Positions 3,419-39,593 of a stretch of 39,593 nucleotides of DNA are shown piece after piece. Numbering within the stretch: position 1 is the first letter of the stretch; every line of letters begins with the position of its first letter. The stretch is from Desulfobacterales bacterium. Lineage in GTDB: Bacteria; Desulfobacterota; Desulfobacteria; Desulfobacterales; UBA11574. The notes below the pieces were generated by a model. It worked only from the letters and a program-made list of their open reading frames with translations, was not told the origin of the DNA and did no database searches. The stretch is taken from NCBI GenBank assembly GCA_037381105.1, contig JARRRC010000001.1, positions 1-39,593 on the forward strand. Reading direction: 5' to 3'. The position numbers and the translations under genes are program-made.

Positions 3419-3450
3419 TTTTATCAATCCTGTATTTGTTTTGTATTATT

Positions 3451-3490: not shown

Positions 3491-3514
3491 TAAAAAAAGG
3501 AGGAAATAACTTAT

Positions 3515-3694
3515 ATGCGAGAAATACAAATAACATTCTGGGTCTATCCGGACGAAAAGGAACGATTCCAAAAAGCTGCGGATCTGCACTCACACGCCCA
3601 GGCAGGCAAAGGGAACCTTTCACAGTTTATCAGGGCATCGATTCACAAGGAAGCCGATGGACTCTTAGGGGATGCTCATGAAAAAGCCGAGTAA
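3515..3694 (+). CDS. Small ribbon-helix-helix (CopG/Arc-like) DNA-binding protein, 59 aa, below the ORF-track size cut-off
   Basis: Manual translation gives MREIQITFWVYPDEKERFQKAADLHSHAQAGKGNLSQFIRASIHKEADGLLGDAHEKAE. The layout is beta-strand (ITFWV), helix (EKERFQKAA), then GNLSQFIRASI. A strong AAGGAGG RBS (about 3497..3503) lies about 11 nt upstream. Confidence 0.6.
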   Translation: MREIQITFWVYPDEKERFQKAADLHSHAQAGKGNLSQFIRASIHKEADGLLGDAHEKAE

Positions 3695-3993: not shown

Positions 3994-5346
3994 ATGGAAA
4001 TCTTTTTAATAAATTATGATAACGGCAGCCGGTGGCCGGTCCTTCCGCAAAATCTTTTTCATTTATATTCGTGCATTGAAGATATCGGCGGGCATGATAT
4101 CTCCATTTTGGATTTTAATTTCTCAAGAATACCACCATATGAAGTTTTACACCAAGAAGAACCTGGCGTCGTCGCCCTCGGGTTTATCTCCGGGTACTGG
4201 CCGCACCAGGAAGCATTAAAGATAGCCGAAGTCATTAAAAACCACCCCAATAGAGATTCAATTCATTTTGTTATCGGCGGGCATGGGCCAAGCGCAGACC
4301 CCCTTTATTATTTAGAGAAACTCGGGGCAGATGCTGTTTTTACAGGATCTGCTGACAACAGCTTTCCATTGTGGCTCAAGAATGGAATGAAACCAGGGAT
4401 TTATGAGAGCCTCGGCTACAATATGGATGTATCTCAATATTATGGCGGCTTTGTTGGCTTTGATGTCTATAAAAGAATCCGCTTCCCCAACACAAAAGAA
4501 AACGAATTTGCTATCCAAATACTATCCGGGCGCGGCTGCCCATATAATTGTGCATTTTGCTTCCGCATGGGCTGCGACTTTTTGCGCTATGATGTCGCCA
4601 ATGTCATAAAAGATATCAAACGCTATGCCATAGAAGACGGCATCAGGCATTTCCAGTTTTCCGACGAGCTTTTAATGATATCCCCATCTATAACGAAAGA
4701 ATGGTGCCGTGCCCTCCAGGATCTGCAAGAGGAAATAGGCATCGATCTTTTCTTCGATTGCAACGGTCGCCTTAATGTCGCTGCAGGAGATCATGACGTG
4801 CTCAGGATGATGAAGGCAACCGGATTTCGCTATATTAATTACGGCTGCGAGTCCATGAGCCAGGAAGCCTTAAACAATATCAACAAGAAGCAGACAGTCG
4901 AACAGATCAGGGACGGTGTTGAGGCTACGATAAAAAATGGCATGACGCCGGGTCTTAATTTTATGTGGGGCAATCCAGGCGATGATTTTGGAAGCCTGAT
5001 GGATGCACAGAAATTTATAGTCGGTCATTCTGACGGCACGGAGCTTAGAACGATACGACCTGTCACGCCATACCCGGGAACAGAGCTTTTTAATATGCTT
5101 GTCGCAGAAGGAAGATGCACCGGGATTGATGATTTCTATGATCATCATGTTAACTCAGATCTTTTCTCTTATCATTTCATGGACGGCATCACGAACGAAG
5201 AAGCAAACCGAATGTTGTGCGGCGCGAATAAATATATATATGATAATTATATTGATAACAAGCAGTCGCGGCAATATGGGGAGATGCTTAAATTCTACTC
5301 AGGAGAAGTCGACCCATTGACTTTCAGAGGGTTTAGGGAGGTATAA
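3994..5346 (+). CDS. Radical SAM enzyme with an N-terminal B12-binding-like (class B) domain
   Basis: 450 aa. The CxxxCxxC cluster motif is in SGRGCPYNCAFCF. The N-terminal ~140 aa looks Rossmann-like (VVALGFISGYW...HFVIGGHGPS), as in cobalamin-type radical SAM proteins. Confidence 0.8.
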   Translation: MEIFLINYDNGSRWPVLPQNLFHLYSCIEDIGGHDISILDFNFSRIPPYEVLHQEEPGVVALGFISGYWPHQEALKIAEVIKNHPNRDSIHFVIGGHGPSADPLYYLEKLGADAVFTGSADNSFPLWLKNGMKPGIYESLGYNMDVSQYYGGFVGFDVYKRIRFPNTKENEFAIQILSGRGCPYNCAFCFRMGCDFLRYDVANVIKDIKRYAIEDGIRHFQFSDELLMISPSITKEWCRALQDLQEEIGIDLFFDCNGRLNVAAGDHDVLRMMKATGFRYINYGCESMSQEALNNINKKQTVEQIRDGVEATIKNGMTPGLNFMWGNPGDDFGSLMDAQKFIVGHSDGTELRTIRPVTPYPGTELFNMLVAEGRCTGIDDFYDHHVNSDLFSYHFMDGITNEEANRMLCGANKYIYDNYIDNKQSRQYGEMLKFYSGEVDPLTFRGFREV

Positions 5347-5349
5347 AAG

Positions 5350-6168
5350 ATGTTGGGAATCAGCACGATAAACATAGAGTTGACAAGCCGCTGTAACAAG
5401 AAATGCCACATGTGCGGCCGCCGCAAGCTGGAGAAAGAAAACCTTGATTATGAATCAACGATGGGCGATATGGAGTGGAATACTTTTGCTAAAATAGTAG
5501 AACAGATTGAGGCCGGCATGGTCGTTCAACTCCACTGGAATGGGGAGCCGACACTTTCTAATTTTCTTTTTGCTGCAAGCTGTACTATAAGAGGCATGGG
5601 TGCATTCGCTTGCATGGATACAAATGGTCTTTTGTTGGGTAAAAAAGCTGATGACCTGGAACATTTCTCTTCCATAACAGTTTCCGTAATCCAGGGAGAT
5701 TCACAAGAGAATTATGATCGACAGATGGCGCAGATTAGGTTCTTTATGGAGACGAATAGATTTCTCGGTTTTTTCCCACAACAGAAAATAAACATCCGCG
5801 CCCTGGGAGAAATCCCGCTTTCTTTTTATCAACTCGCCGGAGAGTACGGGATCGATATCATCCCACGTATATTTCATGCGCCGGAAATGAGCAGAGACTA
5901 TCAAAAACAAGTAACCATGCCGGAAATAGGCGTTTGCCTCGACCTGCTGCATCACCCTGCCATAGACCGCCATGGGAACCTATTCCCTTGTGTGCGCTTT
6001 AACCCTGAAGGGCTAAACTGCCTCGGTAATGTCAATGAACACAGTATAGCAGACCTTTTATCCGGTGAGATCCGCACGGAAATGATCAGAAAACACTTTG
6101 AAGGTAGGCGCAACGAGGTCCCTCTTTGCAATACCTGCCACTATTGGGGTCTTCCGACAGCCCCTTAA
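5350..6168 (+). CDS. Small radical SAM enzyme with a C-terminal SPASM/twitch-like Cys cluster
   Basis: 272 aa. The N-terminal motif is ELTSRCNKKCHMCGR (CxxxCxxC). C-terminal cysteines occur in GVCLDLL, LFPCVRFNP, LNCLGNV and PLCNTCHYWG. The gap to the preceding radical SAM gene is 3 nt. Confidence 0.75.
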   Translation: MLGISTINIELTSRCNKKCHMCGRRKLEKENLDYESTMGDMEWNTFAKIVEQIEAGMVVQLHWNGEPTLSNFLFAASCTIRGMGAFACMDTNGLLLGKKADDLEHFSSITVSVIQGDSQENYDRQMAQIRFFMETNRFLGFFPQQKINIRALGEIPLSFYQLAGEYGIDIIPRIFHAPEMSRDYQKQVTMPEIGVCLDLLHHPAIDRHGNLFPCVRFNPEGLNCLGNVNEHSIADLLSGEIRTEMIRKHFEGRRNEVPLCNTCHYWGLPTAP

Positions 6169-6184
6169 AAAAGAAAGGACAACC

Positions 6185-6946
6185 ATGAACGCAGACACAG
6201 ACAAAGATCTTATCGAAAAATACAATCAGGTCTATGCGGACGGAGAAGAAAAATTCTGGACGTTTCTGCCGGTTGAAGAGCGCCTGGCTATACTTAGAAA
6301 TATTGATCTGCAGGGGAAAACGGTGCTTGAAATAGGCTGTGGCACTGGTGATTTCGCCGCCTGGATGGCATCCTGTGGGGCTAAATTGGTTGTTGCGGCT
6401 GACGCAAGCGGAGCTGCTATCCAAGCAGCCTGCGGGAAATATTGTTTGTCAAATCTTGTCTTTTATGCTTCAGAGCTTAAAATGCTCGGCAATCATAAGG
6501 AATATGATTTTATCGTCATGGTAGGAGTGCTTGAACACTTCAACAATCCAGACGACACAATAGGTTATATCGTCAAGAACATCATGTCCAAAGGTTCCCG
6601 CCTGGTGATAACCTGCCCCCTGTTTATAAATCCCCGTGGCTTTATCTGGGTCGCTCTTAAATATCTTTTCGATGCCCCTATGAGCCTTACCGACAAACAT
6701 GAAATAAGCCCCAACTGGATAAGAAAGATAGCCAAAAAATATGGCCTAAAAACAATCCACACGGAATCGGTTGATTTCAACTGGGGATGCGGGGATAAAA
6801 TGATTTTCGATTATTCCCAAAGACTTCCGAAGGTTTTTCCCGATATGGATGATGAAAAGATAAACAAGATGCTATCATGGCTTAAAGAAAATAAAGAATA
6901 TTTCCAGGGGCTGGGGGCGAACGCGCTTTATATATTGGGAAAGTGA
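6185..6946 (+). CDS. Class I SAM-dependent methyltransferase
   Basis: Motif I is VLEIGCGTGDFAAW, followed by VVAADAS and FIVMVGVLEHF. The ATG at 6185 is preceded by AAAGAAAGGA. The ORF-track start at 6098 would overlap the upstream gene. Confidence 0.8.
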   Translation: MNADTDKDLIEKYNQVYADGEEKFWTFLPVEERLAILRNIDLQGKTVLEIGCGTGDFAAWMASCGAKLVVAADASGAAIQAACGKYCLSNLVFYASELKMLGNHKEYDFIVMVGVLEHFNNPDDTIGYIVKNIMSKGSRLVITCPLFINPRGFIWVALKYLFDAPMSLTDKHEISPNWIRKIAKKYGLKTIHTESVDFNWGCGDKMIFDYSQRLPKVFPDMDDEKINKMLSWLKENKEYFQGLGANALYILGK

Positions 6947-18039: not shown

Positions 18040-20011
18040 AAAGATAAAAACCGTAAACGAAGTCGAACTGATCCAGCGGGCGAAAAAGAATTTCAAATTT
18101 GATTTTGACGCCTGTAAGGAAACCTACGACGAGATGATCGACGATTTGTATTTCGGCCAGGGGATTAACCAGTGGCCCGACAGCGTAAGGGTAGCCCGCG
18201 AAAACGATAAGAGGCCGTGCCTGCGCATAAATAAAATGCCCCAGTTTGTCGATCGTGTGCTCGGAGATTTAAGACAGTCCAGGCCAACGATTAAGGCCAG
18301 GCCGTTTGATGATAGAGCCGATAAAGACACAGCAGAGATCATCGGCGGCATAATCCGTAATATCGAGCAACAAAGCGATGCCGAAATAGTTTACGACTCA
18401 GGCGCCGAGGCCATGGTGCGCTGCGGCTATGGAGCCTGGCGCGTCCTCACTGATTATGTTTCCGACGAGTCTTTTGATCAGGAAATCCTGATCGACAGGA
18501 TTAAAAACCAATTTTCCGTTGTTTTTGATGCAAATGCCAAAAAATGGGATAAATCAGACGCCAGACGCGCTTATGTCTACGAGGACATGCCGAGGGATGT
18601 TTTCAAGCAGCGCTGGCCGAAAAAAGATCCCTGTGATTTTTCTGCGGGCGGCAAGGACCAGGGCGACTGGATTCGAGAAGATACTGTGCGGGTCATGGAA
18701 TACTTTGAGCGGGATATTACCTCGCACAAGCTGTATTTGATTTTGCCGGACGGACAACAAGACACTAAAACTGTAACCGAGCTGCCCGCAGATTATCAAT
18801 ATGCAATCATAAAAGAGCGCACGATACAGGATCCCACAATCACATGGTACAGGATCAGCGGTAAAGAAATCCTTGAAGGACCTATCGAGCTTAAAGGGCA
18901 ATACATCCCGCTTATTCCCTGTTACGGCAAGGAAACCAATATCGAGGGAAAATCTTATTACAACGGCATTATCCGGCACGCCAAGGATTCTCAGCGGCTT
19001 TACAACTATTTCAGGTCCTACGATGCTGAAACAATAGCCCTGGCGCCCAAGGCGCCATGGATCATGACCGCCAAAATGCTCGGGACCTACAAGGCGCAGT
19101 GGGACCAAGCCAACGAACGCAATTTTTCATATCTGCTGTACGACCCAGACCCCAATGCGCCCGGGGTCAAGCCTGAACGCAATATCCCCCAAATGACAAA
19201 TCAGGCCATAATTCAGCAGGTCATGATTGCTGACCAAGAGCTGCACGACACAACCGGCCTGCAGCTTGCCAGCCTCGGCAAGAAATCAAACGAGCAAAGC
19301 GGAGCTGCTATCCAGGCCAGGGCCAAAGAGGGCGATATAGGACAATTTACCTACATTGACAATGTGATGCGGGCGATTAAGCACACAGCCAAAATTATTG
19401 TTGATCTGATCCCCTACATTTACGACACGGCCAGAGTACAGCGCATTATCGGCGAGGACGGCGAGTCGAAAACGGTAAAGATTAACGAGCAGTTCGAGGA
19501 CGAGAAAACAAAAGAATCACGCATATTTGATATGACCATGGGAAAATATGACGTTATTGCCTCGGTCGGCCCGAGCTACCAGACACAGCGCCAGGAAGCT
19601 CTGGCTGCAATGATAGATTTTGCTAAGATCCTCGATAACCAGCAGCGGGCAATCATCTCAGATCAGATTGCAGCCACCTCCGACTGGCACGGAGCCGATA
19701 GGATAGCCAAGCGCCTAAAGCGTACCATTCCGCCCAATCTTTTGGGTCCGGAAGATGCCGAGGAAGACCCGCAACCGCCTGCACCGCCAAACGAACAGGA
19801 GATTAAAATGCAGGCCATGGCGGATGCCAAGATGGAGGTTGAACAGGAAACCGCTGAAGTCGAGCTGGCTATTAAAAAAGCCGAGCTTGAAGAGAAAAAG
19901 GCCAAAGCCGCTATTGCCGAAGCCGAGGCAGCAATAAAAGAAGCCGAGGCGACAGATGTTGCCAGAGGCTTCCAGCGTCCCGATAATTCCAGCGCAAGGG
20001 CTACAGCGTAA
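18032..20011 (+). CDS. Portal protein (P22-like)
   Basis: 660 aa following TerL. It contains GQGINQWPDSVRVARENDKRPCLRINKMPQFVDRVLGDLRQSRPTIKARP and an Ala/Glu-rich coiled-coil C-terminal barrel, as in P22-type portals. Confidence 0.8.
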   Translation: MAKKIKTVNEVELIQRAKKNFKFDFDACKETYDEMIDDLYFGQGINQWPDSVRVARENDKRPCLRINKMPQFVDRVLGDLRQSRPTIKARPFDDRADKDTAEIIGGIIRNIEQQSDAEIVYDSGAEAMVRCGYGAWRVLTDYVSDESFDQEILIDRIKNQFSVVFDANAKKWDKSDARRAYVYEDMPRDVFKQRWPKKDPCDFSAGGKDQGDWIREDTVRVMEYFERDITSHKLYLILPDGQQDTKTVTELPADYQYAIIKERTIQDPTITWYRISGKEILEGPIELKGQYIPLIPCYGKETNIEGKSYYNGIIRHAKDSQRLYNYFRSYDAETIALAPKAPWIMTAKMLGTYKAQWDQANERNFSYLLYDPDPNAPGVKPERNIPQMTNQAIIQQVMIADQELHDTTGLQLASLGKKSNEQSGAAIQARAKEGDIGQFTYIDNVMRAIKHTAKIIVDLIPYIYDTARVQRIIGEDGESKTVKINEQFEDEKTKESRIFDMTMGKYDVIASVGPSYQTQRQEALAAMIDFAKILDNQQRAIISDQIAATSDWHGADRIAKRLKRTIPPNLLGPEDAEEDPQPPAPPNEQEIKMQAMADAKMEVEQETAEVELAIKKAELEEKKAKAAIAEAEAAIKEAEATDVARGFQRPDNSSARATA

Positions 20012-20595
20012 TGCATATCGTTAAAAACACCATAGACAGGCCTCTAAAAAACCATGATTTTTTGTTGATCACGGGAGACGGCAAGCCTTTACCCCGAGAT
20101 CTTGAAACGTTTATGGATCTCGGCATTGACCATGATGTAATGTGCATTGGCCGGTCAATCCAGATATACCCCGGGCTTGTTGATCATTATGCTGATGTTG
20201 ATGCCGATGCCGGCAAGTGGGTTGCTGAAAACCTGATCGAAAATAATCCGGACAAGGGCTACCCGATCAGGCATACCCTCGGCGATGTTGCCTGGTTTGA
20301 TGTTTGTTGGGAAATCGAAGATTGCCTAATTCCATCCGAGGATATTCTGTGGCACGGATCAACGGCGCTGTTTTGTGTTCTGATAGGAATTGCAATGGAA
20401 TATAAGCAGATTGTGCTTGCAGGCTGCCCTATGGACTCCAAGGGGCATTGGTATTTCCCGGATGAAACTTATGGCCCCAAATGGACGTTTGAAAGCTATC
20501 AATCCTGGTTTGAGTTTGCCGCAACAGAGGATGCTAAAAAAGTATGCTCTTTAAGCGGCTACACGAAACAACTTTTAGGCGGGTTCAATGGATAG
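20011..20595 (+). CDS. CstII/Maf (DUF115, MptE-like)-type putative nonulosonic-acid transferase, paralog 1
   Basis: DFLLITGDGKPL, DVMCIGRS and GSTALFCVLIGIAMEYKQIVLAGCPMDSKGHWY parallel C. jejuni CstII segments VIIAGNGPSL, DVFRCNQFY and ITSGVYMCAVAIALGYKEIYLSGIDFY (recalled from memory). Confidence 0.5.
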   Translation: MHIVKNTIDRPLKNHDFLLITGDGKPLPRDLETFMDLGIDHDVMCIGRSIQIYPGLVDHYADVDADAGKWVAENLIENNPDKGYPIRHTLGDVAWFDVCWEIEDCLIPSEDILWHGSTALFCVLIGIAMEYKQIVLAGCPMDSKGHWYFPDETYGPKWTFESYQSWFEFAATEDAKKVCSLSGYTKQLLGGFNG

Positions 20596-21247
20596 CAACT
20601 TCTTAAGCACGGTACAGCCGTACAGAATCGATCCAAAACGCTGGTGGGTTGATATCCCGGTAAAGGACGCCTCTGAGTTAAAGCCCGACACAGGCAATGA
20701 TGTCCTGTTAATCGTCGGAGACGGCCGGGACGTGCTCGCCGATCTGATTAATTTCTGGGGCATACAGGAGCCCGCCGATATCATGTGCATGAATTTTTCC
20801 CCTAAAATTATCCCCGAGGGGGTGCCCATCCAGCACTATATTGCAGGGGATAGCCACACGCCGAGCATGCAAAAAATAGCGGGACAACTGCCCTCCGGTG
20901 TTTTGCGGCATTGCTGGAACCAGAACAGCACGAATTTTGATATCCGGTGGGGGCGCAATACGTCCAAGGGCTGGACCGGAACAACCGCCAACCTCGGCGT
21001 TAAAATAGGCATTGCTTTAGGCTATATGAAAATAGTCTTGGCCGGCTGTCCTATGGATACCAGCGGCAACTGGTACCGCGACAGCCTGCCTGAAAACGAT
21101 GTAAAACGCGGTAAGGATCACACCGCGCACTTGTGGAAGTGGACCGAAATAGCATCCCGGCCGATAGGTCGGTTTATCCGCTCGATGAGCGGGAACACCG
21201 CCATGTTGTTTGGCGAGCCTGACAAGGAGTGGCTGCAAAATGTTTAA
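20588..21247 (+). CDS. CstII/Maf (DUF115, MptE-like)-type putative nonulosonic-acid transferase, paralog 2
   Basis: VLLIVGDGRDV, DIMCMNFS and GTTANLGVKIGIALGYMKIVLAGCPMDTSGNWY show clear paralogy to the preceding ORF and use the same motif set. Confidence 0.5.
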   Translation: MDSNFLSTVQPYRIDPKRWWVDIPVKDASELKPDTGNDVLLIVGDGRDVLADLINFWGIQEPADIMCMNFSPKIIPEGVPIQHYIAGDSHTPSMQKIAGQLPSGVLRHCWNQNSTNFDIRWGRNTSKGWTGTTANLGVKIGIALGYMKIVLAGCPMDTSGNWYRDSLPENDVKRGKDHTAHLWKWTEIASRPIGRFIRSMSGNTAMLFGEPDKEWLQNV

Positions 21248-23507: not shown

Positions 23508-23981
23508 ATGAGCGACGAACAAGTCAAGCCTGGAATTTTTTTCGAAAGAATCGACAGCGCCGGAAACATGGTCAAGTATCCCGCCTGGCGCTATCATGCT
23601 TTGTATGAGCCCAGGATCGTCAACAACACCGAAGAAGACGAAAAGGCCAACGCCGAAGGCTGGAAAGACCCGCAGGTACCGGTTACGGCGGTTCAAAACT
23701 TTTCCAATTTTTACCATGACTTAGAAGATATGAACCAGCGCCAGCTTGTGGCCTATGCCCGTGATGAATACGGGATAGAGCTTCCTGTCGAGGCTTCAAA
23801 AGAAAAGCTTTTATGGGCTCTCTGGCAGATTGCCTGCAGATCGCCCAAAAACGAAGGTAGAATCGTACTGCTGGCTCAGTCCATAAGAATGAATTACGAT
23901 GAGACGCTTTCTGAAATAGAGCGCCTTGCCGGTGATATGGATAATTGCCAGGAAATTGAAAGCGAGGAAATATGGCTTTAG
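23508..23981 (+). CDS. Hypothetical virion-module protein
   Basis: 157-aa ORF in the structural operon. I recognised no family. Confidence 0.5.
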   Translation: MSDEQVKPGIFFERIDSAGNMVKYPAWRYHALYEPRIVNNTEEDEKANAEGWKDPQVPVTAVQNFSNFYHDLEDMNQRQLVAYARDEYGIELPVEASKEKLLWALWQIACRSPKNEGRIVLLAQSIRMNYDETLSEIERLAGDMDNCQEIESEEIWL

Positions 23982-27796: not shown

Positions 27797-28021
27797 ATGG
27801 CTATTATAAAATCCATAAGCGTTCCAAAAACAACGGATGTAAAAGAACTCAGGAAATGGTTTGAGCAAATATCAGAAAAATTCTCGTATCAAAGCTATGC
27901 CGGAGATCCTACGTCCAACATCCTGCCACGCTGGACAGGAGATCTGTGTTTGGATACGACCAATAACGATTGGTATAAGGCAACAGGAACGGCGGCCGCG
28001 GACTGGAAAGCCTTGACATGA
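27797..28021 (+). CDS. Hypothetical small virion-module protein
   Basis: The ATG at 27797 lies 2 nt after the upstream stop. The ORF track begins at a TTG at 27791. Confidence 0.45.
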   Translation: MAIIKSISVPKTTDVKELRKWFEQISEKFSYQSYAGDPTSNILPRWTGDLCLDTTNNDWYKATGTAAADWKALT

Positions 28022-28524
28022 AATTAATCGAGCTTTTAATGGAAGCGCAAGAAGCGGCTGTTTTCCGTGAAAACGCCAGTACTCATGCGTTTATTATAGC
28101 CGCCAAGGCCTCTGATAATTTTGCCCAGGCTGTTGCTGCCGCGCTTATGACCATAGGAAAATTTCATGCCCCGATAACAGCGGCACGGAACATCCTTGAA
28201 AACGCCGATAAAAGTTTTATCAAGGATGCTATCGCTGCTGGAACAAGAATTCCAGGATACGGGAGCAGTTTTGTTAAGGGTGGACAAGATCCGATCTTTG
28301 ATAAGATCGATAGCGAGTTGCTTAAAAATCATCAGCAACACCATGCGCGGATCTGGGAAATTTTCTCATGGATAAAAGAATATAAAAAAACAGACCTTTA
28401 TCCCAACGCAGCTTGTTATACGGCTGTTGTTTCGGATATAAGTTCAGTACCCTTCGGGGCTGAAATATATCTTTTTATCCAGGGCCGGCTTCCGGTTTAT
28501 GTCAATTTGTGGGGGCAGCTATGA
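28018..28524 (+). CDS. Truncated citrate-synthase-like protein with catalytic-residue substitutions
   Basis: 168 aa. RENASTHAFIIAAKASDNFAQAVAAALMTIGKFHAP parallels the citrate synthase segment EQNASTSTVR...GPxHGGA. IPGYGSSFVKGGQDPIF parallels GFGHRVYKxxDPR. LYPNAACYTAVV parallels PNVDFYSG. The second His and the Asp are replaced. Junctions on both sides are ATGA overlaps. Confidence 0.55.
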   Translation: MKLIELLMEAQEAAVFRENASTHAFIIAAKASDNFAQAVAAALMTIGKFHAPITAARNILENADKSFIKDAIAAGTRIPGYGSSFVKGGQDPIFDKIDSELLKNHQQHHARIWEIFSWIKEYKKTDLYPNAACYTAVVSDISSVPFGAEIYLFIQGRLPVYVNLWGQL

Positions 28525-33900: not shown

Positions 33901-34941
33901 AAGGAAGCCAATGCGAAACGATACTGGCGCCTGTTTCATAATGCGGCCACGGAAGGCAAGCTGGCATCGGCCGTAGGAAGGAAATTCATCGGCGCTGCTG
34001 CTGTTAAAACTCCATATCGCGCTTATCGCATAGGCAAGTTTATGATCAAGGCGGGAGCGTTGTGGGGCTTGTTGCAGGTATGGAATAATACGCGCTACCC
34101 GGAGGAGGAAAAACAGCTTCCCGAAGGGATCCGCCAGAAGCCGCATATTATTTTAGGCCGCGATGATAAGGGTGAAATACAATATTTTAGCAGGCTCGGC
34201 GCGGTACCGGACCTGCTCGAATGGATAGGCCTTGATGCCGCTCCGGAATATATCGACAGGCTATCAAGGGGAGAAAGCCCGGCTGTGATCGCCAAGGAGA
34301 TGGCCAAACAGCCTGTTAATATTATGGCTTCCGGCAGCGTCCCGTTTGCCAAGCTCGCCCTTGAAGTAGCTACCCGCAGGGCTCTTTTCCCCGATGTTTT
34401 CAAGCCCAGGACAATCAGGGACAGGGGGTTACACATCGCTCGATCATTCGGTCTTGACAATGAATACAGGGAGCTTGTCGGTCTGCCGAGAAAGCCTTAT
34501 AAAAAATCCGTTAAAAAGGCTTTTATTTATAGCATCGATCCGCTTGAAGCCGCTTACGGGGAGACTTATTCGTTAAAGCAAAAGTATCTTAAAAAAATAG
34601 GCAAATACGGAGAAGGATTCTGGTTGACGACAACCGGAAACGATCTTTATAATGTCAAGCTTGCTATACGCTATGGCGATAACGAAAGCGCCGGAAAATA
34701 TCTTGAGAAATATTTTTCAGACGGTGGGACAATCAATGGAATAACAAAATCATTGATGGCAATGGAACCGCTTTATGGTATGAGCGAAAAAGATCAAACT
34801 GAATTCTTGAACTCTCTCAACAGAGATGAGCTTCTTAAGGTATCCATGGCTTATGAATTTTTTGCGAGGATGTTTGATCCTGAATTTAATAATTCTGACG
34901 AAAAAGCGATTGCAAAATTGGATAGCGAAAAGGGCGGGTAG
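30910..34941 (+). CDS. Large internal virion or DNA-ejection protein (1343 aa)
   Basis: Its size and position at the end of the tail or ejection module are typical of podovirus internal core proteins. I recognised no catalytic motif. The start is GTG. Confidence 0.45.
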   Translation: MNLQEFRQKYPQYNQISDEVLVDNIYKKYYEDRLDRQQFLKLIGFKEQAPAQDGMPETEQESRLPLDTADTSADKAVGDLLPAHQPEQSAPQLMPAHTKYLQKFADRDNTLQPLSYEDPTAEPPGGQRLREMIGEPSQVLETGKRQGALAAKSFNEATAGFMDRLDKMATKVSEITGMEKGGLFEAAKNRYLANAEIWNKRAGKYGLTDEIVGEIVGGAVPGVIEFSLGPAYSGAVGYAEGGIKEGAKKAVERAVLGKILHAVNTLKVLPRTVAGAAVGATEAAARGEDKRGIAKSAAALGLFSAAATGNKKVGIKEAGKDFTETIKQGAKPDSEKIRTETGKGSPGEGLEGREGGRLRLRDDEKEISIAEDREADKYKPEFFGGKERPGKVPKMPETGQDTPEFFGDKRSPEQMLDLREQRDIELSEKLKKESQVGQVEIDFAQKGEPFKFNKDLEENWKKAHGVKKESVFARIGQTMRSMGQKMTREFEHMPKTGEFAEAGFALRKLAKQKDVAMERAIKDIGGVVLRLDKKDFNLFERKVFIDDMVETATEGKKLPFGLDQKKAETERARLDAYIKNSPIVEDALNRRGQVWDKIKSDYSDSMKSIGFNVEERFSRKNYFRHQVLEYVNMKGLFGTGKRLKTPTNRGFLKSRQGSALDINTNYLEAEHEIMAQMIYDTEIAKTIKRIDDKYNIIDKLRKQAKKEKTTYDQIIPEGYIEWQPREGNVFYMADTIPARLAEKITSGAIEELGISAKDIGKALAMGGKRRSMVIKQELADTLDNLYKTRSENPLLEARRKIMRGWKIWQLISPRRYPKYNLRNITGDLDAVIAGNPAHLKKVPEAVKDLYQGFVHKKMSPDLQDFFERGGMGATLQAQEMGSINSLKMFAKMIERKGELKNIPFKAWSSYWKAARMSTDFREAILRYASYLKLKEEMEKSSDGLPKSYLASMPEEVKGLSNIKDRAYLMQNDLLGAYDRISVFGQAMREQIFPFWSWKEANAKRYWRLFHNAATEGKLASAVGRKFIGAAAVKTPYRAYRIGKFMIKAGALWGLLQVWNNTRYPEEEKQLPEGIRQKPHIILGRDDKGEIQYFSRLGAVPDLLEWIGLDAAPEYIDRLSRGESPAVIAKEMAKQPVNIMASGSVPFAKLALEVATRRALFPDVFKPRTIRDRGLHIARSFGLDNEYRELVGLPRKPYKKSVKKAFIYSIDPLEAAYGETYSLKQKYLKKIGKYGEGFWLTTTGNDLYNVKLAIRYGDNESAGKYLEKYFSDGGTINGITKSLMAMEPLYGMSEKDQTEFLNSLNRDELLKVSMAYEFFARMFDPEFNNSDEKAIAKLDSEKGG

Positions 34942-34948
34942 GTTATCT

Positions 34949-35305
34949 ATGGTAAAGAAAATAAACAACAAAATGACTGTCATGGGGTGGGGAAAGCTGC
35001 AAAAATGGGCCGCCGTCATTGTGGCTTTTTGCGTTTTTGGAATCATCGGCCGTTTCGGTATATGGGTGTTTAACGGAATAGCCAGCGCTTATTCAAACAC
35101 CATTAAGATAGAAAACAACGTGACCCATATTATAGCGCTGGGCGAGCATATTAAAAACATCCAAAAAGAGATGGGCGATAATATCAAGGATCTTCAAAAA
35201 ACAAGCAACCAGATAGAAAAAGACGTTGCCGTCAATAAGAAGATCCTTGAAAAATTAGATATAAAGTTTGAGCAGAAGGTCAATTCATTAAGGAGGGCTA
35301 AGTGA
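34949..35305 (+). CDS. Type-II membrane protein with a coiled-coil ectodomain, possibly i-spanin-like or holin-associated
   Basis: The ATG is at 34949. An N-terminal TM segment (AAVIVAFCVFGIIGRFGIWVF) is followed by a heptad-rich charged helix. The functional call is speculative. Confidence 0.35.
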   Translation: MVKKINNKMTVMGWGKLQKWAAVIVAFCVFGIIGRFGIWVFNGIASAYSNTIKIENNVTHIIALGEHIKNIQKEMGDNIKDLQKTSNQIEKDVAVNKKILEKLDIKFEQKVNSLRRAK

Positions 35306-36144
35306 CTAAAATTGTTGCCGAAATCGGAATAAATCACAACGGCCAGATAGAACTGGCTAAGAAAATGATCGCCATGGCGAAATACGCCGGGGCTGCAGCC
35401 GTAAAATTCCAGGTAAGAGACGTTGATACGGTTTACGCCGGCCAGCTTGACAACCCCAGAAACGATGGAAACCCGTATGGCTGGAAAACAGTAGGTGAGC
35501 AAAAGCGCGGGATTGAATTAACCCTGGATCAGTATAAGGAAATCAACACGTTTTGCGAAATGATCGGTATTGATTGGTTCGCCTCTTTCTGGGATCTTAA
35601 AAGCTTTTATGATCACATCAATCTTTTCGATTTCAAATATCACAAGATCGCCTCGGCCATGCTGACAAACAGTGAACTTTGCGAAGCCGTCGCCGCGCAA
35701 GGCAAGCTTACATTTATTTCAACGGGTGGTTGTGATCTGGACGAAATAGATGCCTGCATCGATAATTTTATGAAATTGAATCAGAATATTTGCATCATGC
35801 ATTGTGTCTCGCAATATCCTTGCCCGGATTCGGATTTAAATCTTAACATGATCCAGACTCTAAGGATGCGTTACCCGTGGGCGCGAATCGGATACTCAGG
35901 GCATGAAGTCGGCCTTTATCCGTCCGTTATGGCCATTGCCATGGGGGCGGAATGGATCGAACGGCATATCACCCTTGATAGATCAATGTATGGAAGCGAT
36001 CAGTCGGCGAGCATGGAAATCCACGGACTGCAGCAGCTATGCTCTGTGGCCAAAAATGCGGGCACCATCCTTGGGGATGGCATCAAGGTTGTCACTGACA
36101 AAGAAAGACAATGCATGCAAAAACTAAGGTATTGGGAGCAATAA
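35302..36144 (+). CDS. NeuB-family (sialic, pseudaminic or legionaminic acid-type) ulosonic acid synthase lacking the C-terminal SAF domain
   Basis: The motifs are IVAEIGINHNGQIELAKKMIAMAKYAGAAAVKFQ, HKIASAMLTN, FISTGG, IMHCVSQYPCP and GYSGHEVGLYPSVMAIAMGAEWIERHITLDRSMYGSDQSASMEIHGLQQL. The GTG start follows AGGAGGG by 4 nt and overlaps the upstream stop (GTGA). Confidence 0.8.
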   Translation: MTKIVAEIGINHNGQIELAKKMIAMAKYAGAAAVKFQVRDVDTVYAGQLDNPRNDGNPYGWKTVGEQKRGIELTLDQYKEINTFCEMIGIDWFASFWDLKSFYDHINLFDFKYHKIASAMLTNSELCEAVAAQGKLTFISTGGCDLDEIDACIDNFMKLNQNICIMHCVSQYPCPDSDLNLNMIQTLRMRYPWARIGYSGHEVGLYPSVMAIAMGAEWIERHITLDRSMYGSDQSASMEIHGLQQLCSVAKNAGTILGDGIKVVTDKERQCMQKLRYWEQ

Positions 36145-36151
36145 TCAATAC

Positions 36152-36475
36152 TTAATTCTTTTCCTCAACAAACTCCAAGCCATAGCCATTCGGATCATTT
36201 ACAAACTGTACCTTGCAACCGCTCGGCGCAACAAAATAATAATGATCCTTGTTTATTTCGTCCACCGTAAAAGCAAGATGCAATGAAAAACCGTCCTGGA
36301 ATTCGATGCATACACCCTGGGCGTTTTTCATCTTGACCCAATTAATGGTCCGCCCGTTGATAACATCCATGCCGGATTCGGTAATTGAGAAACCTAATAC
36401 GCTCGTATAATACGAGATTGTTTCTTCAAGATTTTGCGCGGGGATTCCGATGTGCCGGAAATTGATAACTTTCAT
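36152..36475 (-). CDS. VOC (glyoxalase/bleomycin-resistance/dioxygenase-fold) family protein
   Basis: FRHIGIPAQNLEETISYYTSVLGFSI...HLAF...DPNGYGLEFVE is a typical single VOC module. It overlaps the aminotransferase stop by 4 nt. Confidence 0.65.
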   Translation of the reverse strand: MKVINFRHIGIPAQNLEETISYYTSVLGFSITESGMDVINGRTINWVKMKNAQGVCIEFQDGFSLHLAFTVDEINKDHYYFVAPSGCKVQFVNDPNGYGLEFVEEKN

Positions 36476-37515
36476 CCGAGAACCTTTCTGATAATGGCTA
36501 TGCCTTTGTTAAGCTCTTCCATCGTGATATTCAATGGCGGCCCTATTTTCACGGTCTGGGCTTTCGTGTGGACAACAAGCAGCCCGGCTGCACAAAGATC
36601 GACAACGGCCTTGTCGGCATCGTCCGTGCTTTCAAAATAGATGCTTGCAACCATGCCTTTTCCCTGCACCGGCCTTGTCAGTTTGCAAAGCCCTTCTTGC
36701 AAGTGTCGGCCCATTTTCTCGGCATTTTTTACCAAATTAAAGTTTTCAAATTGGTCGACAACTTCAAGGCCAGCGGCGCAGGCTAATGGATTCCAGCCAT
36801 TGGTGGACGATAAATCCATCATGGGGTTATTGATTAAAACCGAGGGTCCAAGGATAGCCGATGCCGGGAACCCATTGCACATCGCCTTGCCCACGCAGAC
36901 AATATCCGGATTAAGATCATAATAATGCTGATACCCGAAAAGCTTGCCCGTCCTTCCAAATCCTGCCTGAATTTCATCGGCGATGAGGATAAGATCGAAT
37001 GTTTTAACCAAGTGCTTGATGCGCTCAATTGTTTTATCCTTATGGAATTGGCACGTAAGGGCATTGTAGGGCTCGAAAATAAGACACCCGGTCTTGTCCC
37101 CTGCTGTCTGGTTGCGCCAGTCAACCTCCCTGCCTGCGGCGATCTGGGCGCCCAACGTTTTACCATGGAAAGCATGCTCAAGACCCCAGATCCCGTTTTT
37201 GCCGGTATAACGCCGCGCTATCTTGTATGCGGCTTCCACGGCCTCGGTTCCGCTTGAAAACATCTGTGCCGCTTCAAACCCGGTAAATGCGCACAGCCTG
37301 TCGTGATATTCTCGCTTGACGGGATGGCCGAACTCATAACAGTGCATGAACTTTTCGGCTTGTTCGCATATCGCGTTGCCAACATCGATATTTCCCATGC
37401 CCAGGCTTGACGCGAAAATGCCGCTTGTAAAATCGATAAGCCCCTTACCGTCTGTGGTATAAACGGTTGAATCTTTGACAAAATCGATCTCTATATCGTG
37501 GATGCTGTTTATCAT
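36472..37515 (-). CDS. PLP-dependent class-III aminotransferase (short form, 347 aa)
   Basis: The motifs are FSSGTEAVEAAYKIAR, HAFHGKT, LILIADEIQAGFGRTGKLFGYQHY and PDIVCVGKAMCNGFP (Schiff-base Lys). Confidence 0.8.
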   Translation of the reverse strand: MINSIHDIEIDFVKDSTVYTTDGKGLIDFTSGIFASSLGMGNIDVGNAICEQAEKFMHCYEFGHPVKREYHDRLCAFTGFEAAQMFSSGTEAVEAAYKIARRYTGKNGIWGLEHAFHGKTLGAQIAAGREVDWRNQTAGDKTGCLIFEPYNALTCQFHKDKTIERIKHLVKTFDLILIADEIQAGFGRTGKLFGYQHYYDLNPDIVCVGKAMCNGFPASAILGPSVLINNPMMDLSSTNGWNPLACAAGLEVVDQFENFNLVKNAEKMGRHLQEGLCKLTRPVQGKGMVASIYFESTDDADKAVVDLCAAGLLVVHTKAQTVKIGPPLNITMEELNKGIAIIRKVLG

Positions 37516-37535
37516 GGCTTGGGTATCTCCTGATT

Positions 37536-37913
37536 TTAAATTAAATTTATGCCGCTTGTTTCCATGTCTTTACATATTTTGTGCACCATCTGTTGGTGCA
37601 TTTCTATCAAGACTTGCGCGGTTGCTGGAATCGTAGGGATAATTCGATCATCCAAATAATAGCTGTATTTGTAATCTATATCGGAGAAACAGGTCGAACC
37701 TACACAATGGAAACCAATATCATCTTTATTTTTAAAACCACGCACAGTCCCTACTTTCCTCAATGTATAAGTTTCATCTTGAACAGCGATCGTATTAAGT
37801 TCCTCACCGTCAACAACATCATTATGCAGGGGGATTTTGTGTTCGAGTTCCATAATCCTTAATTTTAGTTTTTGTATTTCCAATTCAAGAGCGCATTCTC
37901 TAAGCGTCTTCAT
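37536..37913 (-). CDS. Hypothetical protein inside the sugar cluster
   Basis: 125-aa ORF that overlaps the cytidylyltransferase stop by 4 nt. I recognised no family. Confidence 0.5.
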   Translation of the reverse strand: MKTLRECALELEIQKLKLRIMELEHKIPLHNDVVDGEELNTIAVQDETYTLRKVGTVRGFKNKDDIGFHCVGSTCFSDIDYKYSYYLDDRIIPTIPATAQVLIEMHQQMVHKICKDMETSGINLI

Positions 37914-38644
37914 GGTTTAAACACTATCCTTTCTTCTTTGCGCCGTGTGGCGTATTCGAATTCGGCTATTTTAAGATCGTGAAGCGTGTCTATTTCTATC
38001 GTGGGTTCGGTGATGTGCGCCATGACGTTTTCGCCGAACAAGGCGCCCGTGCGGACAATTTTTGGGCGGATGATATCGACAACTCCGTTTGGGTGATATG
38101 TTTTCGGATAAAAATGATTTGGCAGGTTCGCGCCGTCAACCGCATCAGCCATTGCAAAAATTCCTTTTAGCAGGCATTCGGCTTTAATTGTCATGCACTT
38201 ATAAGCGCTTTCGCTCATTTCATGCACGGAACGCAGCCCGGTCGCCTCGGGCACGGCAATCATTTTCTGGATGGCTTCTCCTATATCTTCGACGCGTCTA
38301 AACGGTGTCGTGGGCCGCAGGTAAACAACAAGACTGATGTCGCCCTCATCCACCCCCCTATTGAGGAAGTCTACAATAACGTCACGGTCGGTTGCATCGT
38401 CCGTTGCTGCGTGTTTGCGGCGGCGCATTGGGATCACCCTGTTATAAAAATTGTCCTGGTCATACATGCGGGCAACGTTTAATATTTCATCGTCTTCTGA
38501 TGAAATATAAATTCTGTCGATTGCCTCCACAATCGATGCGCTTGCTATTGACCATTCAAGCAGGGTGGAGGGGCCGATTTTTTGCAGGTTTTTGCGGGGG
38601 ACTCTTTTGCTTTGTCCTCGGGCCGGGATAAGGGCGACTATCAT
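37910..38644 (-). CDS. CMP-ulosonic acid (acylneuraminate-type) cytidylyltransferase, NeuA/PseF/LegF/KdsB-like
   Basis: The N-terminus is MIVALIPARGQSKRVPRKNLQKIGPSTLLEWSI...IDRIYISSEDDEIL. The IPARGxSKRxPxKN signature marks the CTP_transf_3 family. Confidence 0.75.
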   Translation of the reverse strand: MIVALIPARGQSKRVPRKNLQKIGPSTLLEWSIASASIVEAIDRIYISSEDDEILNVARMYDQDNFYNRVIPMRRRKHAATDDATDRDVIVDFLNRGVDEGDISLVVYLRPTTPFRRVEDIGEAIQKMIAVPEATGLRSVHEMSESAYKCMTIKAECLLKGIFAMADAVDGANLPNHFYPKTYHPNGVVDIIRPKIVRTGALFGENVMAHITEPTIEIDTLHDLKIAEFEYATRRKEERIVFKP

Positions 38645-38663
38645 CTTGTTTATTTCTCCTTTC

Positions 38664-38879
38664 TCATGAGATAAGCGATAGAGTTTGTTTAATAAATTTC
38701 ACAATGTTTTCAATTCCCCAAGAATAAAGCGTACCGATCACAACGCCAATGATAACAAATATCAATGGCTTTAGCTTTGTTGCCGGTCTGAAAAGAAAAT
38801 AATCAAGGCATACACCCAGTAGGAGATAGCTTAAACGATCATGCCGCCTTGCTTTTTTCATATCTATTTCGGTATTCAT
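38664..38879 (-). CDS. Small membrane protein
   Basis: The ATG at 38879 is preceded by AAGGAG with a 9-nt spacer and lies 1 nt after the upstream stop. Two hydrophobic segments are present (LSYLLLGVCLDYFLF and LIFVIIGVVIGTLY). Confidence 0.5.
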   Translation of the reverse strand: MNTEIDMKKARRHDRLSYLLLGVCLDYFLFRPATKLKPLIFVIIGVVIGTLYSWGIENIVKFIKQTLSLIS

Positions 38880-38880
38880 A

Positions 38881-39588
38881 TTATTCTTCTCCTTCGACAT
38901 CATCGGTGTCAAGATCAAGAGCTTTGTCCATGGAATTATTTATCTTGTCGGTAAAGTTATCGAGAATTTTTGATGCTTTTTTGACCAGTGCTTCACCAAG
39001 GTCCTTAAATTTGTGGGCAAACTTCCCTTTTAGTAAGAAGTGGTCAATCAGAAATGCCATGGCAACAAAACCGATATACTTTTCATAGGGTTTAATGTAC
39101 TCTCGTATTCCATCAGCCATTGTTTTTGCTTTCTCGATCATGTTATTACCTCTTTTGTGTAGTTTTAGAGCATCTGATCTGTAACCTCCTACTTCTTTAC
39201 TATCCCAACGGACAAAAATTGGAAATTCTTCATCATTGTTGATCTCTTTTACCGTGCCGATTATTTTGTCGGACCCCCTATGCCATAAGCGCACACGGTC
39301 GCCTACTTTGAATTCTCTCATAATTACTTTTTTCCCTTTAACTATATTTTTATCTTCGTTGTTTTGGTGTAATTCCAAGTGTCTTTTATAATAACTGTTT
39401 TTTGCACCGTTATCCCAGAATACCACTATTGGACATATGTCGTGATCACTTATTTCTTTCACGGTGCCAGCTATTTTGCCGTACCTCCCGCCCCACAATG
39501 GGTTATTGCGACTATCTCTGCCGTAATGAGGAAGAAGATAACGCAAACGCACACGGTCGCCTACTTTAAAAATTTTAGACATGACCAA
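38881..39588 (-). CDS. Protein with two tandem SH3-like (MIB/HERC2-like) repeats and a C-terminal hydrophobic or acidic tail
   Basis: The repeats are FKVGDRVRLRY...WGGRYGKIAGTVKEISDHDICPIVVFWDNGAKNSYYKRHLELH and FKVGDRVRLWHRGSDKIIGTVKEINNDEEFPIFVRWDSKEVGGYRSDALKLH. The 5' end lies in the terminal repeat, and the RBS AGGGG sits at about 116-120 of the left copy. Confidence 0.55.
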   Translation of the reverse strand: MVMSKIFKVGDRVRLRYLLPHYGRDSRNNPLWGGRYGKIAGTVKEISDHDICPIVVFWDNGAKNSYYKRHLELHQNNEDKNIVKGKKVIMREFKVGDRVRLWHRGSDKIIGTVKEINNDEEFPIFVRWDSKEVGGYRSDALKLHKRGNNMIEKAKTMADGIREYIKPYEKYIGFVAMAFLIDHFLLKGKFAHKFKDLGEALVKKASKILDNFTDKINNSMDKALDLDTDDVEGEE

Positions 39589-39593
39589 CCCCT
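39475..39593. repeat. Terminal direct repeat, right copy (identical to 1..119)
   Basis: Same 119-bp string as 1..119, read directly from the sequence. Confidence 0.95.

Follow-up and report, generated by a model that had tools for sequence, protein, structure and literature searches.

The window analysed here is a 39,593-nucleotide stretch of DNA, taken in full, from a Desulfobacterales bacterium (GenBank assembly GCA_037381105.1, contig JARRRC010000001.1). Our subject is its region 35302-38644, which holds five genes: a NeuB-like synthase, a VOC protein, a class III aminotransferase (AT3), a 125-residue open reading frame (ORF) and a cytidylyltransferase. An earlier note on this DNA had described them as a phage-encoded cluster for the synthesis of an ulosonic or nonulosonic acid and its activation with cytidine monophosphate (CMP). 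All five ORFs are present where the note had placed them, the four enzyme calls were checked with profile hidden Markov models (HMMs) and all score above the curated Pfam cut-offs, and the overall description is supported by profile searches and comparative genomics. Coordinates are collected in Table 1.

The first and last 119 bases of the window are identical (1-119 = 39475-39593, an exact direct repeat). It follows from this repeat that the window represents an entire phage genome, circular or circularly permuted, ~39,474 bp long and podovirus-like in kind. Its plus strand codes for the small and large terminase, portal (18020-20011), scaffold (21318-22199), major head protein (22210-23442), head-closure protein Hc3 and ejection proteins, and has a further ORF at 23508-23981 next to the head genes; other genes of the window code for RecE/RecT, DnaB, a replication initiator and DNA methyltransferases.

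Table 1 Genes discussed in the text, with positions in window coordinates.
Gene product	Position	Strand	Length	Remarks
SAF-less NeuB-family synthase (condensing phosphoenolpyruvate with an aldose)	35302..36144	+	280 aa	Last gene of the late (+) operon
VOC (glyoxalase-fold) protein	36152..36475	-	107 aa	Last gene of the leftward operon
Class III (omega-amine type) pyridoxal-phosphate aminotransferase, AT3	36472..37515	-	347 aa	
ORF of unknown function	37536..37913	-	125 aa	Between the cytidylyltransferase and AT3 genes
CMP-ulosonic acid synthetase (cytidylyltransferase)	37910..38644	-	244 aa	
Radical S-adenosylmethionine (SAM) enzyme with N-terminal B12-binding-type domain	3994..5346	+	450 aa	
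SPASM/twitch radical SAM enzyme	5350..6168	+	272 aa	
Class I SAM methyltransferase	6098..6946	+	~282 aa	Start codon uncertain
p194, candidate MptE/Maf-like sialyltransferase-fold transferase	20011..20595	+	194 aa	First of a tandem paralog pair
p219, candidate CMP-ulosonic acid transferase, MptE-like/DUF115/GT29-type fold	20588..21247	+	219 aa	Second paralog
RecE and RecT	3427-1177	-		
Mom-like DNA modification protein	622-1131	-		PHROG E=3e-26, no Pfam match
DNA methyltransferase	9306-10178	+		E=1.5e-70

The synthase matches the Pfam family NeuB (PF03102) over the entire profile (positions 1-241 of 241), with E=1.2e-62 and 212 bits (cut-off 22.1). It has no SAF domain: Pfam assigns the NeuB domain only, and the protein ends at residue 280. 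An alignment to a 349-residue NeuB ends at chain residue 256, and the closest solved relative (6ncs_A, E=1.4e-31), a structural-genomics ‘sialic acid synthetase’ of 290 residues, is likewise SAF-less. When aligned to 2wqp_A, the synthase has E7, K35, Q37, K115, S118, S140, Y172, S199, H201, E220, H222 and D233 at metal and phosphoenolpyruvate (PEP)/substrate-site positions, and all twelve are invariant in an 18-member family alignment. The corresponding site residues of Neisseria meningitidis NeuB, numbered as in the published structure work, are E25, K53, Q55, K129, S132, S154, Y186, S213, H215, E234, H236 and D247. The Pfam assignment bears out the SAF-less NeuB call of the earlier note. N184 of the N. 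meningitidis enzyme is replaced by Ser170 in the phage protein. In N. meningitidis NeuB, the SAF domain donates Arg314 to the N-acetylmannosamine (ManNAc) site; since the phage synthase lacks this domain, and hence the Arg314 donor, its sugar substrate is probably different from that of the N. meningitidis enzyme. The protein also falls outside the NeuB, PseI and LegI equivalog groups, with scores below the NCBIfam cut-offs for NeuB_NnaB (TIGR03569, 211.9 bits vs 399.65) and PseI (TIGR03586, 158.7 vs 340.25).

The cytidylyltransferase belongs to CTP_transf_3 (PF02348; E=1.6e-15; 58 bits, cut-off 22.6). Its translation contains LIPARGQSKRVPRKN, as had been noted previously, which fits the N-terminal P-loop-like motif PARxxSxRxxxKN. 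The nearest solved relatives are NeuA CMP-N-acetylneuraminic acid (CMP-Neu5Ac) synthetases. The top NCBIfam match is PseF, at 81.4 bits where the cut-off of 205.7 is not reached, and scores against KdsB models are at most 40 bits, where the cut-offs are 155-281. From these profile scores, we regard the synthase and the cytidylyltransferase as clear family members that are not equivalogs of any named enzyme. The earlier note had called the two reactions the defining steps of every sialic, pseudaminic, legionaminic or Kdo-type pathway, which is loosely worded, as pathways to Kdo (3-deoxy-D-manno-oct-2-ulosonic acid) use KdsA and not a NeuB-family enzyme.

The aminotransferase is of class III, as proposed, and not of the DegT/PseC type (Aminotran_3, PF00202, E=5.7e-62). 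Its nearest solved relatives are the acetylornithine, γ-aminobutyric acid (GABA) and putrescine aminotransferases, all omega-amine transaminases, and its translation carries the motifs DEIQAGFGRTG and VCVGKA; at 347 residues it is shorter than its cellular orthologues (419-459 residues). HMMs for NAD-epimerase/dehydratase and for DegT aminotransferases gave no match in a six-frame search of the window, and no Pfam family for a nucleoside diphosphate (NDP)-hexose 4,6-dehydratase, DegT aminotransferase, N-acetyltransferase or NeuC/PseG/LegG hydrolase was found among the ORFs scanned. This is in keeping with the claim that a NeuC-, PseB- or LegB-type step is missing. The VOC protein matches Glyoxalase (PF00903; E=1.3e-7; 32.5 bits, cut-off 20.6), and its matches to glyoxalase I, methylmalonyl-CoA epimerase and FosB are weak. 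The 125-residue ORF matches nothing in Pfam, NCBIfam or PHROGs and was found by tblastn in none of 80 viral loci. Because it is also missing from sibling phages ~90% identical in DNA (including the one labelled L001), where the cytidylyltransferase and AT3 genes overlap directly, it is probably a lineage-specific insert and not a pathway component; we therefore rejected it as the cluster member that it had been taken for.

We see the same set of genes far beyond this genome. The SAF-less NeuB has more than 8000 database relatives, and scans returned at least 527 IMG/VR viral contigs and at least 590 reference-genome matches in Bacteria and Archaea, ranging from Pelagibacter and Prochlorococcus to Leptospira and Methanoperedens. 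Gene neighbourhoods with 10-kb flanks were compared at 167 loci by de novo clustering and HMM labelling, with 80 viral and 80 cellular loci (the latter L088-L167) entering the counts. A CTP_transf_3 gene lies beside the SAF-less NeuB at 65 of the 80 viral and 60 of the 80 cellular loci. A co-directional trio of cytidylyltransferase (CTP), AT3 and VOC genes occurs at more than 50 loci in nearly invariant order, usually with NeuB just upstream; VOC is present at 25/28 AT3 loci, and the order there is always CTP>AT3>VOC. Carriers of the trio include the sibling phage L001, the ~40-kb phages L003, L015, L027 and L038, Alphaproteobacteria, SAR86, Leptospirales, Magnetococcales and Methanoperedens. 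In the 94%-identical L001 the order is CTP-AT3-VOC-NeuB, and in the distant 39.7-kb phage L003 a single operon reads CTP-AT3-x-VOC-NeuB-B12rSAM-x-SPASM-x-x-MTase. An alphaproteobacterial metagenome-assembled genome (MAG; L005) has NeuB-CTP-AT3-VOC-MTase-AP_endonuc_2-SDR-SDR, set among GT2, GT4 and GT9 glycosyltransferases and a Polysacc_synt flippase, and a Leptospirales locus (L131) has NeuB>CTP>AT3>VOC>MT>MT>SPASM>B12rSAM.

Downstream of the shared genes we recognise two alternative tailoring modules, comprising a Methyltransf_23 (MT23) gene with either AP_endonuc_2 and SDR genes or a B12-type and a SPASM-type radical SAM gene. Compact phages have the second of these, as CTP>AT3>VOC>NeuB>B12rSAM>SPASM>MT23 in a single direction, and related ~40-kb phages, which have a portal family in common with the window, hold all seven genes in one operon. 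The window contains the same cassette, VOC<AT3<CTP with an adjoining NeuB and a module of the radical SAM type, and deviates from it in that NeuB is inverted and the 125-residue ORF is inserted. The literature searched holds no description of this cassette, in a phage or a cell, nor any assigned product, so what we see here is a widespread pathway without a characterised counterpart, present in compact form in this phage.

The membership of the cluster therefore needs to be drawn differently from the earlier note, which rightly included NeuB, CTP, AT3 and VOC and left out three genes at 3994-6946. In the window these are set apart from the rest of the pathway by the RecET module; in L003, L015, L027 and L038 they are contiguous with it, and the B12-type gene is contiguous with NeuB in all four. 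The Methyltransf_23 family is also found 3′ of the VOC or radical SAM genes in most cellular and viral cassettes. Because of this contiguity and co-occurrence in relatives, we assign the three genes to the predicted sugar pathway. The 450-residue enzyme matches Radical_SAM (E=2e-16) and B12-binding (E=2.6e-8), carries the CxxxCxxC cluster motif as CPYNCAFC, and has AprD4 as its top solved relative (6fd2, E=2.3e-7). It would be either a sugar C-methyltransferase or an AprD4-like diol dehydratase. The 272-residue enzyme matches SPASM (E=7e-7) and Radical_SAM (E=2.5e-4); its CNKKCHMC motif is followed by a C-terminal Cys cluster (GVC...PCVRF...NCLG...LCNTC), and its top solved relative is BtrN (4m7s, E=5.9e-6). 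It is probably a BtrN-like alcohol dehydrogenase that makes a carbonyl for transamination, a role predicted from the BtrN match and an obligate pairing with an aminotransferase. The third enzyme matches Methyltransf_23 with E=1.2e-14, and all three genes score above the Pfam thresholds.

The pairing can be seen in the 12 compact phage loci in which the relevant region was recovered. NeuB, CTP and the SPASM radical SAM gene are present in all 12, with AT3 in nine, the B12-type gene in eight, VOC in seven and MT23 in six. Compact loci that lack AT3 have a class IV aminotransferase in the same neighbourhood (PF01063, E=3e-43 and 6e-33). Class IV genes were found in L014 (8968-9903), L024 (4157-5059), L055, L069 and L074, and L024 holds both classes. 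This 311-residue family had been considered as a transferase of the other compact phages, a role that was rejected once it was recognised as a class IV aminotransferase. The exchange is a non-homologous replacement of the transamination step. Since the combination of a radical SAM oxidant with a transaminase is kept across aminotransferase folds, we regard it, as judged from gene content, as the conserved heart of the pathway.

The expression of these genes in the window is split. The synthase start overlaps the stop codon of the upstream ORF (GTGA, as had been read before), with an AGGAGG ribosome-binding site 8 nt 5′ of the GTG start. The note had also placed the leftward genes in the operon that carries RecET, which holds true by way of the circularity of the genome that the 119-bp repeat reveals: the order is RecE > RecT > Mom-like > orf148 > wrap > orf235 > orf84 > CTP > orf125 > AT3 > VOC. 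The divergent rightward operon begins at 3672 with a VRR-NUC nuclease, followed directly by the B12-type, SPASM-type and methyltransferase genes. Counting the two candidate transferases at 20011-21247, the pathway is spread over three places in the genome, the others being the regions 35302-38644 and 3994-6946.

The split itself is real in this genome, and is derived, because NeuB is flipped here relative to the siblings. The NeuB gene alone (35306-36148) is inverted in place compared to L001 (10008-10852) and L002 (662-1506), at ~91% nucleotide identity; these are two independent sibling contigs from other samples, and their flanks of NeuB align in the opposite sense, at ~88-93% identity. NeuB is co-directional with CTP-AT3-VOC in both siblings and in every related compact phage showing both genes. 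We therefore read the separation of the synthase from the leftward operon as a recent, lineage-specific rearrangement, which moved NeuB out of the last place in the early leftward operon and into that of the late operon. An invertible switch was considered and rejected: no long inverted repeats flank NeuB, and the best pairs are 16-35 nt long with 71-81% complementarity and lie off the junctions, so we treat the rearrangement as fixed. The NeuB and VOC stop codons now face each other head-on, 7 bp apart (36144-36152), with no recognisable terminator-like hairpin at this convergent junction. Late transcripts would run antisense into the early sugar operon at this point. A promoter and terminator scan of 34700-39593 gave the same counts as shuffled sequence.

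No standard glycosyltransferase was found in the window by Pfam scans. The best candidates for the missing CMP-ulosonic acid transferase are p194 and p219, which we propose because of the fold similarity of a model and genomic linkage to the CMP-ulosonic acid pathway. The pair is encoded between the portal and scaffold genes; the two proteins are 32% identical to each other (E=8e-21), p194 scores 185 bits against the family HMM, and both have a Rossmann start and a G-T-T-A...G-C-P-M-D motif. Residues H83, D88, H108, Y146, D157 and Y163 are invariant in the family. An AlphaFold2 model of p219 (pLDDT 91, pTM 0.89) gave 12 matches at E<=1e-3 in BFVD, the named ones being MptE-like, GT29 and DUF115 proteins; across the named BFVD proteins, E ranges from 1.7e-4 to 6e-3, with probabilities of 0.90-1.0 and TMq up to 0.58. 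High-probability matches in the PDB comprise SteA and, after it, only CstII and ST6GalNAc2, both CMP-bound, with TMq 0.48-0.49; no PDB match reaches E<=1e-3. An assignment to MptE or GT29 at the level of sequence was tried and is not supported, since Pfam gave nothing and hhalign a motif only; the case is one of fold and linkage. With regard to linkage, the family always occurs as a tandem pair, and cassette genes are present at 9/9 close-family loci with sufficient upstream flank, in keeping with the attention that the earlier note had drawn to these paralogs. Four ~40-kb contigs retrieved with the p194/p219 family are contigs also found via NeuB, and distant family members adjoin CTP_transf_3 or DegT genes. 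Several relatives have a third family copy, located ~5-10 kb further downstream and deeper among the structural genes, namely L174 (20256), L178 (16741), L182 (19847), L184 (7247) and L194 (14241); the window has the pair only.

Taken together, these data lead us to propose that the region is part of a seven-enzyme pathway, joined by two candidate transferases, which yields a CMP-activated, aminated and tailored ulosonic acid destined for a protein acceptor, most likely in the virion. We consider this reading probable, with considerable room for doubt. The SAF-less NeuB enzyme, whose family is clear, would condense PEP with an aldose or aldose phosphate supplied by the host, yielding a 3-deoxy-2-ulosonic acid, and the NeuA/PseF-like enzyme, again clear as to family, would activate this acid as a CMP-sugar. 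The tailoring steps are all predicted from family membership, nearest solved relatives and conserved gene order. The BtrN-like SPASM enzyme and/or the AprD4-like B12 enzyme would create a carbonyl on the sugar, through alcohol oxidation or diol dehydration, and the class III aminotransferase would turn it into an amine; the carbon concerned is probably terminal or otherwise unhindered. The VOC protein may epimerise or isomerise the keto intermediate at the stereocentre beside the carbonyl, and the SAM methyltransferase, possibly also the B12 enzyme, would add methyl groups. Finally, p194 and p219 could move the sugar onto a protein acceptor, most likely a virion protein. The tight coupling of CTP and AT3 suggests that tailoring may take place on the CMP-sugar. 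The product is likely a CMP-linked, aminated, methylated and/or deoxygenated 3-deoxy-2-ulosonic acid, and its synthesis would bypass the NDP-hexose route (PseB/C/H/G, LegB/C/H/G or NeuC).

A non-sugar aldehyde derived from ornithine, GABA or putrescine was also considered as the NeuB substrate and thought unlikely, as a 2-ulosonic acid must have a polyol chain able to form a ring if it is to be activated with CMP, and the cassette lies within glycan loci. Of the 80 cellular SAF-less NeuB loci, 34 have GmhA-like SIS_2 isomerase genes and 35 have AP_endonuc_2 genes. These neighbours hint that the aldose, possibly a heptose, derives from a ketose phosphate, in which case the acid would be C10; we note this as a lead only. 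Larger viruses place MptE-like (Maf-type), GT29-like, GT10 and GT4 genes beside the cassette, and many large marine viral contigs (60-316 kb, within L018-L087) have much bigger versions of the locus, adding cupin, NAD-epimerase, DegT, HAD-like, GT4, GT10, GT29-like and MptE-like genes. Virus-encoded glycan loci for ulosonic acids seem to be common in IMG/VR, although some of the large contigs may be cellular or prophage fragments.

Several points weigh against the proposed pathway to a virion sugar, or limit how far it can be taken. The sugar substrate and the structure of the product (C8, C9 or C10 backbone) are not deducible from sequence, and the enzyme roles are predicted; because the NeuB, PseI and PseF equivalog cut-offs are missed widely, substrate specificity is not fixed. 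The radical SAM matches to BtrN and AprD4 are weak (E ~1e-6 to 1e-7), AprD4-type and methyltransferase-type B12-domain enzymes are indistinguishable from these matches, and the role given to the VOC protein is a guess. Neither p194 nor p219 has a sequence match to PF01973, PF00777 or any glycosyltransferase family (0/44 family members), hhalign of the paralog family against an MptE alignment gives a 36-residue motif match with E=0.007, the PDB TM-scores of the p219 model are <0.5, and the linkage of the paralogs to the cassette stems largely from one phage lineage with shared synteny. A virion protein as acceptor is speculative and the weakest step: it is suggested by gene position only, because the paralogs lie between portal and scaffold, with mycobacteriophage virion glycosylation as an analogy. 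Most of the pathway genes lie in early operons, which would fit modification of the host cell equally well. In short, the mechanism of synthesis is moderately well supported by the comparisons made here, and the acceptor is speculative.

This last point leads to a serious rival explanation, in which the same pathway makes a sugar that remodels the host surface (lipopolysaccharide (LPS), capsule, flagellin or S-layer) via host enzymes or p194/p219, for example to block superinfection or mask a receptor. We regard it as possible, and as distinctly less probable than transfer to a phage protein. What makes it serious is that cellular cassettes serve surface polysaccharides, lying in LPS and polysaccharide loci with GT2, GT4 and GT9 genes and a flippase, and that six of the seven phage enzymes are encoded in two early operons diverging from 3427-3672; cyanomyoviruses are moreover known to carry KdsA/KdsB and many cell-wall genes (PMC12801897). 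However, the window yielded no membrane glycosyltransferase, flippase or polymerase, and its only transferase-like genes sit within the head-gene block. The ORFs scanned likewise revealed no integrase or other gene for lysogeny, so long-term host conversion is unsupported.

A simpler proposal would have the synthase and cytidylyltransferase make ordinary Neu5Ac, pseudaminic acid (Pse) or legionaminic acid (Leg) from a host precursor, with AT3, VOC, radical SAM and methyltransferase genes as unrelated accessories. The top NCBIfam matches (NeuB_NnaB, PseI and PseF) and the top solved relatives (sialic and pseudaminic acid synthases, and NeuA) point that way. Leptospira also offers a parallel, in that its Neu5Ac synthesis has been ascribed to a NeuB-phosphatase fusion encoded beside an aminotransferase and a CMP synthetase (PMC3438082). 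Against this, the equivalog cut-offs are all missed by about half, the SAF domain that supplies the ManNAc-site Arg314 in N. meningitidis NeuB is absent, and both the strict CTP>AT3>VOC order across phage, bacterial and archaeal loci and the obligate radical SAM/aminotransferase pairing are hard to square with unrelated genes, so that we think this proposal improbable. The idea that the activated sugar hypermodifies phage DNA is the least credible of all, and we give it hardly any weight. CMP-sugars are not known to act as donors for DNA glycosylation, no hydroxymethylase, thymidylate-synthase homologue, DNA glycosyltransferase or DNA polymerase was found among the ORFs scanned, and cellular homologues of the cassette are in polysaccharide loci. 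The pathway genes do lie in early operons with RecET, a Mom-like protein and a DNA methyltransferase, and there are known phage glycosyltransferases with DNA as their target (Pyle et al. 2024, cited in PMC12619734). However, sibling L001 retains the sugar cassette while its Mom-like gene is swapped for unrelated small ORFs, so the Mom-like gene is not tied to the cassette and was rejected as a link to DNA modification.

Compared with the established pathways to Neu5Ac (NeuC/NeuB/NeuA), Pse (PseB,C,H,G,I,F) and Leg (LegB,C,H,G,I,F), the phage set shares a NeuB-family synthase with the same catalytic residues, a CTP_transf_3 enzyme and an amino group supplied by a pyridoxal-phosphate enzyme; in addition, Maf-like (MptE) and GT29-like transferases beside the cassette are shared by its larger viral relatives. 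It differs in having no SAF domain, NDP-hexose 4,6-dehydratase, DegT aminotransferase, N-acetyltransferase or NeuC/PseG/LegG hydrolase. Instead, the aminotransferase is of class III (class IV in some relatives), and where the established pathways have NDP-sugar steps the phage set has radical SAM enzymes and a VOC protein.

A likeness of enzyme logic is found in aminoglycoside biosynthesis, the source of the nearest solved matches of both phage radical SAM proteins. BtrN is a radical SAM alcohol dehydrogenase whose ketone product is then transaminated, AprD4 is a sugar diol dehydratase giving a keto-deoxy sugar, and GenK, GenQ, GenB1 and GenL perform C-methylation, oxidation, class III transamination and N-methylation at C6′. 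The shared sequence is one of radical oxidant, aminotransferase and methyltransferase acting on a sugar, whereas the phage substrate is presumably an ulosonic acid or its CMP ester and not an aminocyclitol pseudo-oligosaccharide, and CMP activation implies transfer to an acceptor and not secretion of an antibiotic. The pathway to the Shewanella sugar Kdo8N is similar in concept only. There, a finished ulosonic acid is oxidised at its terminal carbon by KdnB, a metal-dependent alcohol oxidoreductase, and then transaminated by the DegT-type KdnA, with the Kdo backbone coming from KdsA and not from a NeuB-family enzyme.

With regard to transfer, the p219 model is similar in fold to the Maf (MptE-like/DUF115) flagellin glycosyltransferases and the GT29/GT42 sialyltransferases, and is likewise linked to a CMP-ulosonic acid pathway; compared to Maf, p194 and p219 are far smaller (~200 residues), have no Pfam match and form a tandem pair in a head-gene module, their transfer role being that of candidates. 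A second nonulosonic acid gene set in Leptospira interrogans has an adjacent synthase-phosphatase fusion, aminotransferase and CMP synthetase, with the aminotransferase step marked ‘4, 13, or ?’ (PMC3438082). The phage synthase lacks the phosphatase fusion, and the published aminotransferase is likened to AT3 by adjacency, not by class. Mycobacteriophage virion glycosylation (Freeman et al. 2023, cited in PMC12619734) and the cyanomyovirus Kdo genes (PMC12801897) are precedents for phage genes of sugar biosynthesis and transfer, lying beside structural genes or acting as cell-wall modifiers; those systems use NDP-hexoses or KdsA/KdsB, unlike the NeuB-type CMP-ulosonic acid route predicted here. 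In the literature searched, we found no description of a phage NeuB-type CMP-ulosonic acid pathway with radical SAM and aminotransferase tailoring.

Bacterial surfaces are capped by nonulosonic acids, among them sialic, pseudaminic and legionaminic acids, which govern immune recognition, motility and phage adsorption. If our proposal is true, a phage that makes its own CMP-activated relative of these sugars would disguise its particle or rewrite the surface of its host, and neither has been described for this class of sugar in the literature searched. As the same cassette occurs in cells without an assigned product, solving the phage version would also assign a function to an orphan glycan pathway spread over hundreds of bacterial and archaeal species, and the seven genes of the compact phage form offer a natural minimal set with which to reconstitute it heterologously. 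The cassette could reveal a new radical SAM-based way to aminate and tailor ulosonic acids, and the pathway might be the source of the unassigned CMP-linked ‘higher-carbon ulosonic acids’ reported in Magnetospirillum (preprint 10.64898/2026.04.20.719630). The ~200-residue paralogs, if they are indeed transferases, would be smaller than any known member of the sialyltransferase/Maf fold, and useful for glyco-engineering. In its boldest form, the idea is that a lineage of ~40-kb phages makes an undescribed amino-/methyl-/deoxy-ulosonic acid from a simple host sugar, using a radical SAM and transaminase route that avoids the NDP-hexose chemistry common to all known nonulosonic acid pathways, and that a new, minimal ~200-residue family of Maf/sialyltransferase fold, encoded among the head genes, places it on the phage’s own virion; we offer this tentatively, and doubt that all of its parts hold together.

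The origin and surroundings of the genome can be described briefly. Distant blastn found no DNA-level relative among deposited phages, and protein-level matches were limited to two uncultured marine viruses, at 36-41% identity. NCBI bins the contig in a Desulfobacterales MAG (P0121, locus tag P8012_00150), which is weak evidence for the host. No tRNA genes were found in the window, and NeuB carries no host signal, because its cellular relatives are uniformly 43-50% identical across many phyla. Upstream of the cytidylyltransferase, a 235-residue ORF (38881-39588, minus strand) has two copies of an SH3-like repeat (KVGDRVRL...) and a hydrophobic C-terminal segment, and matches PHROGs of unknown function (E=7e-13). 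Beside it, an 84-residue ORF (38664-38918, minus strand) has the appearance of a two-helix membrane protein; neither ORF of this pair (38664-39588) was found in more distant relatives. On the plus strand, a 1343-residue ORF (30910-34941), 3′ of the ejection-protein genes, matches nothing in Pfam or PHROGs; its product is presumably a large ejection protein or internal virion protein. Finally, a 168-residue ORF (28018-28524, plus strand) in the tail/ejection region matches the Pfam citrate synthase C-terminal domain (E=3.2e-7; 30.2 bits, cut-off 27), which is odd for a structural module.

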